Counted from the first letter of the stretch, positions 34,370 to 38,515 are shown. The stretch is DNA of 39,316 bases from a virus (IMGVR_UViG_3300006056_003026), one strand, 5' to 3'. The notes: generated from the sequence alone by a model not told the origin. Numbers and translations: made by a program.

Positions 34370-35466
34370 CAGATCCTGACGATCCGACCATCATGGGTCA
34401 GGATCGTGACCGACGATCGAGCCCAATCCGGCACATGGCCCTCCTCGTCACGATCGCTGGCTCGAAGCCTCCAAAAACCCATGTCGGATGGGTGCACCGA
34501 TAGCACCGTGAAGGGAACGAACGTCGGGATCCGTACGGTCGTCGACCAATCATCGACGCCAACATCGTACTGAAGTTCAGGTCCTACGAGGCACATGATG
34601 AGCCCGGGTCCTCCGTTCGGACATGACACAGCGTAACGGATCGCAAGCGACACGTCCTCGAAGTTCGGAGGAAGCGGCGTGGAATTGAGAGGCGTCGTGG
34701 GCGAAGGCCGACCGGGCGGGAACAGGAACCTCGTGCCCTTGATGTCACGGTGACAACCAGGATCCTGCTTCTTCAACGTGATCGACGATGAGATGTCGAA
34801 CTTGACTGGCACCGACTCGCCAACAGCAGCCGGCCCGACCTTGTCAGGATCAACTCCCCCGTACGGGCCCTTGTACCTCAACCCCTCGACGACAGCGATT
34901 CTCGAGCCGCCTCCCATCGCTTTCTCGATGCCCAAGCTGTTCCATATCTCGACGGATGCGCATGCTGCGCACGGATCTACGCCTCCGCGACCGGTCATGA
35001 TCGAACCGTTCTCGAAGAGGTATGCATCCCAATTTCCCGGGAGCTGCAGCTCACCTGCTCTTGCGAGCCAGCTGTCATCCTCACCAGGACCTCGGCTGTA
35101 CGGGCTCCTGACGCAGTGCTGGAATAGCGGATGATTTACGGTCACAGGTTGGGTGTTCCTATTCTTCGAGATCTTGAACGTCGTGCTGTTGACGAACGGA
35201 ACGTTCTTCCCGCCCGGCGGGTTAACGTTGTGGTGCATGTACGTCTGCTGTGCCATGAACTCATCTCGAATTTTGATCTGTTGAACAGGCAGGATGATGG
35301 GATGATCATTCCTCTTCCCAAACGTGTTGACGAACTCCTTGAACGACCTGATGACCTGCGGCAGATCGGGCGCTTTGACAGGCTTATTAATCGTGCTAAG
35401 GTAGTCGACCGCCTGGATTGGATCGACGAATGCGGGTGCAAGCCTGTTGTTCCTCATGAGTCCCAA
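34369..35466 (-). CDS. A-type large paralog (365 aa)
   Basis: 'RFLFPPGRPSP...NGGPGLIMCLVG...IPTFVPFTVL...ILTHDGRIVRI'. Confidence 0.55.
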   Translation of the reverse strand: MGLMRNNRLAPAFVDPIQAVDYLSTINKPVKAPDLPQVIRSFKEFVNTFGKRNDHPIILPVQQIKIRDEFMAQQTYMHHNVNPPGGKNVPFVNSTTFKISKNRNTQPVTVNHPLFQHCVRSPYSRGPGEDDSWLARAGELQLPGNWDAYLFENGSIMTGRGGVDPCAACASVEIWNSLGIEKAMGGGSRIAVVEGLRYKGPYGGVDPDKVGPAAVGESVPVKFDISSSITLKKQDPGCHRDIKGTRFLFPPGRPSPTTPLNSTPLPPNFEDVSLAIRYAVSCPNGGPGLIMCLVGPELQYDVGVDDWSTTVRIPTFVPFTVLSVHPSDMGFWRLRASDRDEEGHVPDWARSSVTILTHDGRIVRI

Positions 35467-36164
35467 ACACGTTCGATGTTGATCAACCTACGATCCTCTG
35501 TGAGGATGACGCACGAATCTGTCAAAGCAGAGATCACCGTGAACGGTACCCAACAATCGATGATGTCGACATCACCGTCAAGATTTATAGCATCAAGCGC
35601 ATCGTCGATGAAGCACATAAAGCTTCCTGGTCCTGCTCCGGGAGCTCGAGCCGCATCGATGATCGCTCCGTTGAAATCGAGCCGGCTCGGTCTCATGACG
35701 TACCTTACGCCCGAGGCAGGATCATCAGCGTACCACCTGATATCATCAGCGTTGCCCCACATTGGCGTCAGGTGAGCTCGTAGGGCATCGACCTGTCCCA
35801 ACGCAAAGATCATCTGCCTCTCATCGTCAGGTCGATTATCATCGACGATCGTGACAACGCTCAGGTTCTGGTTCACCCGGCCATGCACGGGGGTTTCGAT
35901 ATCATTGAGGATACGCTTCGAATACGTCTCAATGAACGCGTCGACGTAGTACGAAAGGCTCCACCTCGTACCGTTGATCCATGCAAGGAACGATCCGTCG
36001 ACGGTCCGTGACCCTGCTAACATCCTGTCTGATGCGGTTGGTCCGTTCGGGCGACACTTCGAGATCGTGAAATTTCTGATCGACGGTACGCCGCCTCGTT
36101 CCATCGCGAGAACGGTGCTTTTTGATTCGTGGCTGGCGATCCCGCTGTGTACGAACGTGTTCAT
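35454..36164 (-). CDS. A-type paralog (cassette copy 1, gene A)
   Basis: 'DRMLAGSRTVDGSFLAWINGTRWS...PGAGPGSFMCFID...WVPFTVI'. Close paralog of 36787..37551. Confidence 0.55.
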   Translation of the reverse strand: MNTFVHSGIASHESKSTVLAMERGGVPSIRNFTISKCRPNGPTASDRMLAGSRTVDGSFLAWINGTRWSLSYYVDAFIETYSKRILNDIETPVHGRVNQNLSVVTIVDDNRPDDERQMIFALGQVDALRAHLTPMWGNADDIRWYADDPASGVRYVMRPSRLDFNGAIIDAARAPGAGPGSFMCFIDDALDAINLDGDVDIIDCWVPFTVISALTDSCVILTEDRRLINIERVWDS

Positions 36165-36796
36165 GTTCCCCTGACCCGACCGATGCCCATGGAAACGGAG
36201 AACGATGGGTGATTGACGGTGCAGATGAACGCATCCATCCAGGAGACCTGGACCTCTGACATCCCATCGGGGAAGATCATCATGAGGTCACGAACGCTGT
36301 CATGGCTCATCGTCGGCCTGATCCCGATCGCCTCGTCGATCATCCACACGACGTAGCAGATGACCTGGTTTGCGTTGCTCGGCCTGAGCTCGATGCACCA
36401 TGGCGCTCGACGTGAAGTCGGAGGGCTATCGTCCGTGGACTTCCGGTGGGATGCGGATGCAGACCTGAAGAATGTCGACCGCCCGTTGAAGGTGGGGATG
36501 ACGTTGCGATCCCGACGATCCTCGAGCCTGATCAGCCAGTAGCAGCCCTCAACAGTCCTGATGACCGTGCCTCCCATAATCACGACGACCTCAGCGATGG
36601 TCAGCTTGGTCGGGCCGTCGATGACCTTCCCATGACCGTTGGTCGTCGTCACGATGAATGAGGAACCGTTAGGAAGCTGGGCAAGCTCCTGCAGGTTCAA
36701 GGGCTCGAGGTCCTTGGAATCGGTGCTGATAACCTCGCGGGGGATGCTGCTCATGCTTCGAACATACCACTGTAAGAGCAGACCATTCACATCCAT
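36161..36796 (-). CDS. B-type hypothetical protein (cassette copy 1, gene B)
   Basis: 'WYVRSMSS...LEPLNLQEL...PTSRRAPWCIELRPSNAN'. Paralog of 37847..38515. Confidence 0.5.
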   Translation of the reverse strand: MDVNGLLLQWYVRSMSSIPREVISTDSKDLEPLNLQELAQLPNGSSFIVTTTNGHGKVIDGPTKLTIAEVVVIMGGTVIRTVEGCYWLIRLEDRRDRNVIPTFNGRSTFFRSASASHRKSTDDSPPTSRRAPWCIELRPSNANQVICYVVWMIDEAIGIRPTMSHDSVRDLMMIFPDGMSEVQVSWMDAFICTVNHPSFSVSMGIGRVRGT

Positions 36797-37551
36797 GGAC
36801 GATCGATGACAACGACCTCGCGGTCGATATCGATGATCGATCCCGTTTCATCAAGGATCCTGCACGATGTCAGGTCGCATGTCAGGACCGTGAAGGGCAC
36901 CCATGTCCTAACCCATCTGCCATCACGTGTGATCTTCGCTGTCTCAGCAACCTCATCAACGATGATCATCACCGTACCTGGACCCCCGCCTGGAGCTGAT
37001 GCGGCTAGGACGATCGCCTCGTCGAACTCGAGCATGCTCGGGCGGGAGACAAACCTGATCCCGGTGATCGGATCGTCCAGGTAGGAGAAACCCTTGGGAA
37101 CATCATCATGAACGGGTGCCAGCATCTTGAGCCACGGGATATCCCTATGTGAGGAGAACATGATCTGCCTCAACCTGGACATGTCCCTCGACCCGTCGCT
37201 GCAATCGTTGAACGTGATCAACGTCAGCATTCCGCCGGACGGCGAGCCACCCAACACGCTACGACGGTTGATGTGAGCGATGCTGTAGGACTCGCACCAT
37301 GCATGCGAACCTGGACCGGTGTTCCATGATGTTCCGCTGATCCACTCGAGGAACCTCCCATCGATAGCCTTGGATCCGGAGAGCATCCTGTCAGCAAGGA
37401 CCTCCCGCATACCTGGTTCATCCCGTGCCTCCATCAACGATGAACCTCCGATCGCTGCAACCGTCGTCGGTGACATGCTGATGCTCATCCGCACCGAACG
37501 AACGGGAACGACCATCAGGTGCTCCCATCCTGACCGAGCACGTACGACCAT
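36787..37551 (-). CDS. A-type paralog (cassette copy 2, gene A)
   Basis: 'DRMLSGSKAIDGRFLEWISGTSWN...PGGGPGTVMIIVD...WVPFTVL'. Confidence 0.55.
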   Translation of the reverse strand: MVVRARSGWEHLMVVPVRSVRMSISMSPTTVAAIGGSSLMEARDEPGMREVLADRMLSGSKAIDGRFLEWISGTSWNTGPGSHAWCESYSIAHINRRSVLGGSPSGGMLTLITFNDCSDGSRDMSRLRQIMFSSHRDIPWLKMLAPVHDDVPKGFSYLDDPITGIRFVSRPSMLEFDEAIVLAASAPGGGPGTVMIIVDEVAETAKITRDGRWVRTWVPFTVLTCDLTSCRILDETGSIIDIDREVVVIDRPWM

Positions 37552-37850
37552 GATTCGGTGACAAGCGATGGATCAGCACGGGACGTGATCCGAAGCCTCG
37601 AGCTGATCTCATCCCGGGTCAGGCCACATCGACCATGAAGGTCGCTGAATGCTTCCTCGAGGAACGACGATCCGTAACCAAGGGTACCGTCAAGCTCGAC
37701 CTCGACCGTGTCACCGAACCGGGAGCTAGCAAGTGCGGGTGCAAGGACATCATCCCTGAAAGCTTCCCCAGAGAAATCCCCGTCTGACCTGAACCTCCCA
37801 GACGGAAAGCGGGAGAAATCAATCGCAACCCTGATCAGGTGGATGCTCAC
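37515..37850 (-). CDS. STAS-like (DUF4325-like) small protein, tentative
   Basis: 'VEVELDGTLGYGSSFLEEAFSDL' resembles the STAS-like 'LDFxGV..xxSSFxDE' core. Inserted between A and B of cassette copy 2. Confidence 0.35.
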   Translation of the reverse strand: MSIHLIRVAIDFSRFPSGRFRSDGDFSGEAFRDDVLAPALASSRFGDTVEVELDGTLGYGSSFLEEAFSDLHGRCGLTRDEISSRLRITSRADPSLVTESWSYVLGQDGST

Positions 37851-38515
37851 GAGCCGGGTGTCCTCTCCGTGCTAGAGATCCAATCGTCGATGACCTTGGT
37901 CTGGATCACGGTCATACGATCCGGGAACAGGTAGAGGAAGCCACGGGAGTTATCGAACTCATAGTCGAACTTGAACCCGTAGCTCTCCTTGAAGGCGCGC
38001 TGAAAGTCCCCGATCGCCCCGAGCGGGTTCGCTGTGGACCTGAGATCCACGACCCAAGGCTTTCGTCGGGAAGTGGGTTCCGAACCCGGGGAAACGACGG
38101 GAGGCAACCTGAAGAAGTGCTCCGTACCGTAGGGAACGTCCAGCGTGTTCCTGCCCATGTTCCCAACGTTGCCCCTGATCGTCCAGAAGGATCCGTCAGC
38201 AGCCTCGATGATCACGTACGAGTACCGATCGCCAAGGACCCGTCGCTTCATGCGGATCGTCCTCTCGGATCGATCGTAGAACTCCCGGGTGTCCCCCGGC
38301 TCAGGGGCAGACTGCTGCAACCTCGAGATGAAGCTGTCACCCTCGTTCATAAGGATCAGCTCGGACAGGGGAAGGGGTTCGAGCTGCTGGTTATGGTTGG
38401 GACGATCGCTGCTCATGCTCAATTGATACCACGTGAGCCAGCAAGCATGCACAGCGTAACATGGTGGTGATCGTGCTCGATGGTGCACGACAATCATTGT
38501 GCACGTGGTGCACAA
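37847..38515 (-). CDS. B-type hypothetical protein (cassette copy 2, gene B)
   Basis: 'WYQLSMSS...LEPLPLSEL...PTSRRKPWVVDLRSTAN'. Confidence 0.5.
   Translation of the reverse strand: MCTTCTMIVVHHRARSPPCYAVHACWLTWYQLSMSSDRPNHNQQLEPLPLSELILMNEGDSFISRLQQSAPEPGDTREFYDRSERTIRMKRRVLGDRYSYVIIEAADGSFWTIRGNVGNMGRNTLDVPYGTEHFFRLPPVVSPGSEPTSRRKPWVVDLRSTANPLGAIGDFQRAFKESYGFKFDYEFDNSRGFLYLFPDRMTVIQTKVIDDWISSTERTPGS

Follow-up and report, generated by a model that had tools for sequence, protein, structure and literature searches.

Turnover of a tandem gene family around a STAS-like DUF4325 gene in a metagenomic fragment, most likely from a huge phage

The viral sequence IMGVR_UViG_3300006056_003026 (39,316 nucleotides; this whole stretch is hereafter the window) lies within the 40,079-bp metagenome contig ENA ERZ27257534 k141_2360849 and is most likely a fragment of the genome of a huge phage. 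We analyzed a locus in it at which members of two gene families, A and B, flank a gene coding for a small STAS-like protein of the DUF4325 family. An earlier note made from the sequence had described the locus as a duplicated cassette, with each of two A-type genes (A and A') followed by a B-type gene (B and B') and the STAS-like gene inserted in one of the copies. All five open reading frames (ORFs) are present where the note placed them, and all five lie on the minus strand. Read in the direction of transcription, the order is the reverse of the one proposed: the two units are B'-DUF4325-A' and B-A.

These genes belong to the upstream part of a long minus-strand gene block with overlapping stop and start codons (Table 1). 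Most consecutive junctions of the block show overlaps of 1–4 nt (ATGA or GTGA), which suggests that it is one translationally coupled block. The stop codon of B' overlaps the start codon of DUF4325 by 4 nt (GTGA), and the stop codon of B overlaps the start codon of A (ATGA). The exception is the A'-B junction, which features a 10-nt overlap if B starts at 36796 or a gap of about 33 nt if it starts at 36754. The true start of A' is probably at 37515, where it shares 1 nt with the DUF4325 stop codon, rather than at 37551. The G+C content of A and A' is ordinary, both overall and at third codon positions, and the proteins of both families are predicted to be soluble. Scans of the region for promoters and terminators returned counts no higher than those from shuffled sequence.

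Table 1. Genes of the minus-strand block in order of transcription, other features of the window, and segment-by-segment alignment to the related genome
Feature or segment	Window position	Strand	Counterpart in the related genome	Remarks
w38857	38857..39291	-	74% identical, dN/dS 0.26	144-aa orphan; first co-directional gene of the block seen in the window
w38494	38494..38841	-	63% identical	115-aa basic orphan, isoelectric point 11
B'	37847..38416	-	P0003, 76–81% identical, dN/dS 0.19	189 aa from ATG at 38416; ORF open up to TTG at 38515; B-family paralog 1
DUF4325	37515..37850	-	83% identical, dN/dS 0.22	111 aa; standalone, STAS-like; Pfam PF14213
A'	36787..37515	-	missing	242 aa from ATG at 37515; longest ORF to 37551; A-family
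B	36161..36754	-	82% identical, dN/dS 0.23	197 aa from ATG at 36754; ORF open to ATG at 36796; B-family paralog 2
A	35454..36164	-	missing	236 aa; A-family; ATGA overlaps at both ends
A3	34369..35457	-		362 aa; A-family with long N-terminal extension
A4	33575..34369	-	79% identical, dN/dS 0.20	264 aa; A-family
A5	32883..33578	-		231 aa; chimeric A-family gene
w32446	32446..32886	-	91% identical	146 aa; short distal A-family member
w32006	32006..32449	-	63% identical	147 aa; short distal A-family member
MVP-like gene	24934..27621	-	L003 15918–18608	895 aa
Plus-strand cluster	2404..13399	+		NUDIX, pyrimidine-dimer glycosylase, HhH-GPD glycosylase, VWA, ADP-ribosylglycohydrolase, TANGO2, AAA ATPase, GroEL
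Segment: w38857 to near the DUF4325 3' end	39315–37535		L001 9064–10900	78% identity
Segment: A'	37534–36756 (779 bp)		54 unrelated bp in L001	no identity
Segment: B	36755–36163		L001 10955–11547	85% identity
Segment: A	36162–35454 (709 bp)		2 bp in L001	no identity
Segment: A3 to A5	35453–33018		L001 11550–14005	81% identity
Segment: A5 C-terminus	33029–32947		L001 20505–20587	83% identity

Sequence comparisons bore out the homology of both proposed pairs of paralogs but not their closeness. A and A' are 35% identical over 201 aa (E = 8e-35) and B and B' 29% identical over 205 aa (E = 5e-17). The estimation of synonymous divergence suggested in the earlier note yielded no date for the duplication, as synonymous sites (dS) are saturated in both pairs; the nonsynonymous divergence (dN) is 0.84 for A/A' and likewise for B/B'. 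Thus, both are pairs of old rather than close paralogs. In a tree of the A family, A and A' emerge as sisters with 93.5% bootstrap support, and they share an N-terminal similarity that is missing in the other members. B and B' are the sole two members of the B family; the idea that B might itself be a diverged A-family member was rejected (hhalign probability of about 1.5%). The sister grouping of A and A', the presence of only two B genes, the same dN for both pairs and the similar leaders of the B genes (see below) together render the duplication of an A-B cassette, as the earlier note had it, probable.

Among the three motifs that had been noted in the B-type proteins, LEPLxLxEL and PTSRRxPW are retained in both. 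The third, WYxxSMSS, straddles the start codon, with the gene caller starting B' at MSS (38416) and the B and B' of the related genome likewise beginning at MSS. Most of this motif may therefore represent a conserved 5' leader (TGGTATGTTC..ATGAGCAGC) rather than protein; its DNA is common to B and B'. About 25 nt before the MSS start (..TGGTATGTTC..(A/G)(G/C)C ATGAGCAGC) are common to B, B' and the B' of the relative (window 36754–36796 and 38416–38470; L001 9960–10000). The stretch could act in translation initiation or regulation as a conserved element, or it could itself be translated into a short extension of the N-terminus.

We then found further A-type genes outside the cassette: A3, A4, A5, w32446 and w32006 are all members of the family. 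BLAST and hidden Markov model searches recovered five members in the window, and jackhmmer added w32446 and w32006, bringing the family to seven genes, compared to 16, all consecutive, in the related genome. An alignment including these 16 genes showed a conserved C-terminal core of about 110 aa behind variable N-termini, with the motifs D..G.RF, AI..A...PG, PTFVPxTV and ILTxDGRI.E; A, A', A3, A4 and A5 display the fuller forms AI..AA..PGGGPGT, PTFVPFTV and ILTxDGRI. Identity among the paralogs is 20–36%. The A genes thus form a tandem family of at least three adjacent, co-oriented paralogs with demonstrable homology. Further, its copy number and content differ between close relatives and it includes a recombinant gene, as in birth-and-death evolution.

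The one related genome is represented by the Logan contigs L001, L002 and L003 (247 and 343 kb), which share about 80% amino-acid identity with the window and are densely packed with small orphan genes; we fetched about 30.6 kb of it, in which L001 and L003 overlap. A candidate third genome, L007, was rejected as identical to L001. In the relative, the order is B'-DUF4325-B-A3-A4-A5 followed by further family genes, with both A' and A missing at gene boundaries; where A is replaced by 2 bp, GGAACA flanks both sides. Across the shared genes, ortholog dN/dS values of 0.09–0.26 point to purifying selection and hence to functional genes, and B', DUF4325 and B are retained at 76–85% identity with dN/dS of about 0.2. 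No ortholog of A or A' was recovered from the protein databases searched, and a search of the same kind with B' found its 81%-identical ortholog. The claim that conserved pairing implies a functional interaction of A with B finds no support in this relative, which keeps B', DUF4325 and B without A' and A. As neither A nor A' accompanies B in the only other genome, the proposed dependency fails on the very ground, co-occurrence of A and B homologs elsewhere, on which the earlier note had staked it.

Several observations bear on the direction of this difference. Given that A and A' are only 35% identical as against about 80% between the two genomes, they pre-date the split of the two lineages. 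The DUF4325 gene of the relative is 13 codons longer and ends in GTCATCGATCG, an 11-nt stretch that matches the 3' end of the window A' just upstream of B and lies at the homologous position in L001. In addition, the start codon of A3 has changed from ATG to ATC in the relative and the 5' part of the gene carries a 1-nt frameshift; the gene now starts at an internal methionine, leaving about 190 nt of recognizable A3 5' coding sequence (L001 11535–11775). As this stretch is identical in the assemblies from three runs, the decay is no assembly error. At the decayed A3 start, the B gene of the relative reads five codons further. The A' remnant and the decayed A3 start together argue that the state of the relative is derived, with A' and A deleted there, and the ancestral order was most likely B'-DUF4325-A'-B-A-A3 onward.

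A loss on the side of the window was seen further along the array. A5 is a chimera whose residues 1–190 match the third array gene of the relative and whose C-terminus matches the fourteenth, with the crossover at 33018–33029, within CCGATCACGGTG, which codes for the PxTV motif of the family. PxTV is the most conserved motif of the family, and the two parent genes lie 6.5 kb apart in the relative. The window is without the 6.5 kb that carry ten family genes in the relative, and these ten genes were lost from it via a crossover in the PxTV motif. The chimeric A5 and the losses at gene boundaries thus point to an array that evolves by unequal recombination and by deletions at gene boundaries.

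The STAS-like call for the gene between B' and A' was confirmed, as the protein scores 46 bits on PF14213 (DUF4325, 'STAS-like'), for which the cut-off is 23 (E = 4.4e-12, model positions 1–62 of 64). Its identity to Marinobacter phage AS1 gp40, itself a PF14213 match, is 47%. DUF4325 is a widespread and uncharacterized family. In both the window and the relative, its gene has a partner directly upstream with a 4-nt stop/start overlap, and the gene that maintains this junction is B', not A'. Elsewhere DUF4325 is again second in a pair overlapping by 4 nt, namely in Marinobacter phage AS1 (gp41/gp40; L008 1892–3342) and in a Helicobacter prophage (LS68_008055/008050; L009 2138–3288). The Helicobacter partner matches HATPase_c_2 short of the gathering score (E = 2.6e-5) and is homologous to the AS1 partner (BLASTP E = 1e-5); N-box, G1 and G2 motifs are visible by eye in both. 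Pfam picks up these two GHKL-type ATPases barely or not at all. Vibrio phage VH-8 (L010 2582–3312) has an unannotated ORF of 133 aa that shares 4 nt with the start of DUF4325; thus, in all three other phages or prophages examined, a standalone DUF4325 gene comes second in an overlapping pair. A similar pair is reported for Francisella phage KIRK (Fhv_0046/0047; PMC7924643), and genes of a PIN subgroup (PIN.4) have been described as transcriptionally coupled to DUF4325 genes (PMC5499597). The phage DUF4325 pairs look like an uncharacterized two-gene accessory module near lysogeny genes.

The partner at this locus is of another type: B' is neither a GHKL (HATPase_c_2-like) ATPase nor a PIN.4 nuclease, and neither B nor B' has a Pfam match. 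The candidate reading of B as a degenerate GHKL ATPase was rejected, with an hhalign probability of 0.05% against the AS1 and Helicobacter ATPases. No GHKL-like ORF emerged from the window, L001 or L003 when every ORF of 50 aa or more was scanned with profiles and motifs, and a Pfam census of 62 window ORFs contained no HATPase_c_2 anti-sigma kinase. The window and the fetched part of the relative yielded neither a PP2C phosphatase (SpoIIE/RsbU) nor a sigma factor, and the sole phosphatase in the window is a calcineurin-like metallophosphoesterase 20 kb away. The partner-switching logic that the earlier note had read into the STAS-like gene thus finds none of its other components here. Judged by position, the local partner of the STAS-like protein, if it has one, would be the B family. 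In an alignment of five DUF4325 proteins, all five retain an SSF(L) motif in which, at the level of sequence, a Ser-Ser precedes a helix (GSSFLEEAF). This position may resemble that of the phospho-serine of SpoIIAA, where helix 3 of the STAS fold begins, and we take it as a lead only.

Searches for homologs of A and B beyond this lineage were uniformly negative. Scanned with Pfam, PHROGs and PADLOC, A, B and the genes around them (including w38857) gave no match save for DUF4325, and Pfam at E-values up to 10 on all 21 family members revealed no consistent weak family. Profile searches with A', B' and the A family matched only the window's own contig and the one relative; a profile search of 1.84 billion representatives (standing for about 15 billion proteins) returned six hits, all from the same lineage, with 5.8 billion protein clusters at 90% identity also covered. 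Neither family was found in locus scans of IMG/VR, JGI metagenomes and GTDB genomes, megablast and tblastn against a phage collection gave no match for the region or for A3, and no PDB sequence profile matched A or B. AlphaFold2 models were of low confidence (pLDDT, the predicted local distance difference test, of 52 for B and 53 for A4), with residues 150–264 of A4, its C-terminal core, alone reaching moderate confidence. Foldseek against a viral library returned no match at an E-value of 0.001 or better, and we found no relevant report in the literature on paralog arrays of jumbo phages. On these searches, A and B are truly orphan families, known only from this phage lineage among billions of proteins.

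Beyond the locus, the window codes for GroEL, an AAA ATPase, a NUDIX protein, an ADP-ribosylglycohydrolase, TANGO2, a VWA protein, two DNA glycosylases and a metallophosphatase. The genes of the plus-strand cluster are unusual 'cellular' genes for a phage. The window further encodes an MVP-like protein with the Major Vault Protein shoulder domain (PF11978, E = 3.6e-28) and Vault_3 repeats, which aligns over about 80% of its length with proteins from the published huge phages LR756500/1/3 at 42–44% identity; its gene lies in a GC-rich stretch (0.62, compared to about 0.54) and has a conserved counterpart in the relative. That huge phages should have a vault-like shell protein seems to merit a study of its own. 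One of 52 ORFs scanned jointly, and none of those scanned singly, gave a Pfam match to Gp23, the T4-type major capsid protein (E = 1.4e-7).

We hold with moderate confidence that the whole is best explained by an old B-A duplication within an array evolving by birth and death, with B'-DUF4325-B as a conserved unit and A and A' as accessories. One ancient segmental duplication of the B-A pair would have left the alternation of B-A with B'-(DUF4325)-A'; this is the simplest course because A and A' are sisters, both pairs are equally diverged and the B leader is shared. The array would have undergone birth and death, driven by unequal recombination and by deletions that run between short homologies where genes join, with A and A' being dispensable accessory genes rather than obligate partners of B. 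Within the conserved unit, a B-type protein is most likely what the STAS-like protein binds and regulates, given that DUF4325 elsewhere follows a GHKL ATPase or has a PIN nuclease as its coupled partner. As the weakest step, and with low confidence, A and B would be soluble accessory proteins in host interaction or counter-defense, with the fast turnover of their locus reflecting an arms race. A bolder version, which we consider unlikely, would make B'-DUF4325(-B) a new pair of effector and STAS-like regulator, with B replacing the GHKL ATPase or PIN nuclease, and the A family a diversifying library of host-targeting or anti-defense proteins gained and lost as hosts change. Several points count against the favored explanation. 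Both 'conserved' and 'dispensable' derive from a single comparison, with one related genome, in which B is still directly followed by an A-family gene (A3), and B may need some A-family neighbor. The 11-nt A' remnant is modestly significant, as 18 of 500 shuffles reach it anywhere in the segment. The B-DUF4325 interaction is a case of guilt by position, B being no GHKL protein, and A and B come with neither homologs, domains nor structural matches, and with poor models.

The explanation offered in the earlier note, an obligate two-component module of A and B that stayed paired after its duplication and that the STAS-like protein could optionally regulate by partner switching, would account for the parallel divergence of A/A' and B/B', the grouping of A with A' as sisters and the overlapping stop and start codons of B and A; moreover, the STAS-like domain is real, and DUF4325 elsewhere adjoins a HATPase_c_2-like ATPase, from the family of the anti-sigma kinases. 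Nevertheless, we regard it as very unlikely, as purifying selection maintains B', DUF4325 and B in the relative in the absence of A' or A, orthologs of the latter two turned up in no database searched, most members of the 7–16-strong A family have no B neighbor, and no kinase, phosphatase or sigma factor of a partner-switching system accompanies it in the window or the flanks of the relative. We likewise give little credence to A and A' being recent insertions of mobile cassettes in the window lineage, with their alternation with B a coincidence. The edges of presence and absence do fall exactly at gene junctions, with A replaced by 2 bp and GGAACA on either side, but the divergence of A and A' places them before the split, their base composition is ordinary, the relative bears the A' 3'-end remnant and decayed A3 start that deletion predicts, and Pfam and PHROG scans found no endonuclease or transposase.

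With respect to function, the main alternative is that the A family, and perhaps B, are paralogous virion or internal-head proteins rather than host-interaction factors. Jumbo phages like phiKZ have tandem sets of paralogous virion and internal-head proteins, and such a role would fit the soluble tandem paralogs, which have a core in common and belong to a huge phage, together with the Gp23-like match and the MVP-like shell protein in the same window. We consider it improbable on balance, as a copy number of 7 versus 16 between phages about 80% identical is unusual for structural components, and neither a PHROG structural match nor a fold match to virion proteins beyond noise was obtained. That the ORFs are not genes at all, with their similarities due to chance in GC-rich sequence, is suggested by nothing other than the complete lack of homologs and has a negligible likelihood and is refuted by the E-values of both paralog pairs and the ortholog dN/dS values; two independent assemblies and their gene calls also agree. 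Thus, the feature is real but ordinary: gene-family turnover in a huge phage, and a DUF4325 gene with an unusual neighbor. A conserved A-B module with partner switching, if true, would have meant a new regulatory system. The value of what is seen instead is modest: a clean two-genome case of array turnover with boundary deletions, a crossover within a motif and the decay of a neighboring start codon; two orphan protein families; and a DUF4325 gene behind an unusual partner.

Large DNA viruses harbor lineage-specific tandem families that evolve by birth and death or as 'gene accordions', such as the K3L amplification of poxviruses and the paralog arrays of giant viruses. The A array resembles these in its co-oriented paralogs with a shared core and variable ends, its copy number differing between close relatives, its chimeric gene from unequal crossover in a conserved motif, and its loss of whole genes at boundaries. 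It differs from them in that its paralogs are old (20–36% identity) rather than products of recent amplification, and in that no homolog exists outside the two phage genomes. With the SpoIIAA/RsbV modules the locus shares a small STAS-like protein, and perhaps the position of the conserved Ser-Ser before a helix, but the match here is to DUF4325 instead of the STAS family proper, and no kinase, PP2C phosphatase or sigma factor was found. Further close parallels are the modules of a GHKL ATPase with DUF4325 in temperate phages and prophages (phage AS1, the Helicobacter prophage and phage KIRK) and the PIN.4-DUF4325 pairs, in which a DUF4325 protein of the same size, 37–47% identical, is encoded by the second gene, with a 4-nt overlap. 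Unlike in the GHKL modules, the gene before DUF4325 here is the orphan B', devoid of GHKL motifs or similarity, and a second B paralog follows downstream. Partners other than a GHKL ATPase or a PIN nuclease can thus precede DUF4325, which may help explain the DUF4325 modules.

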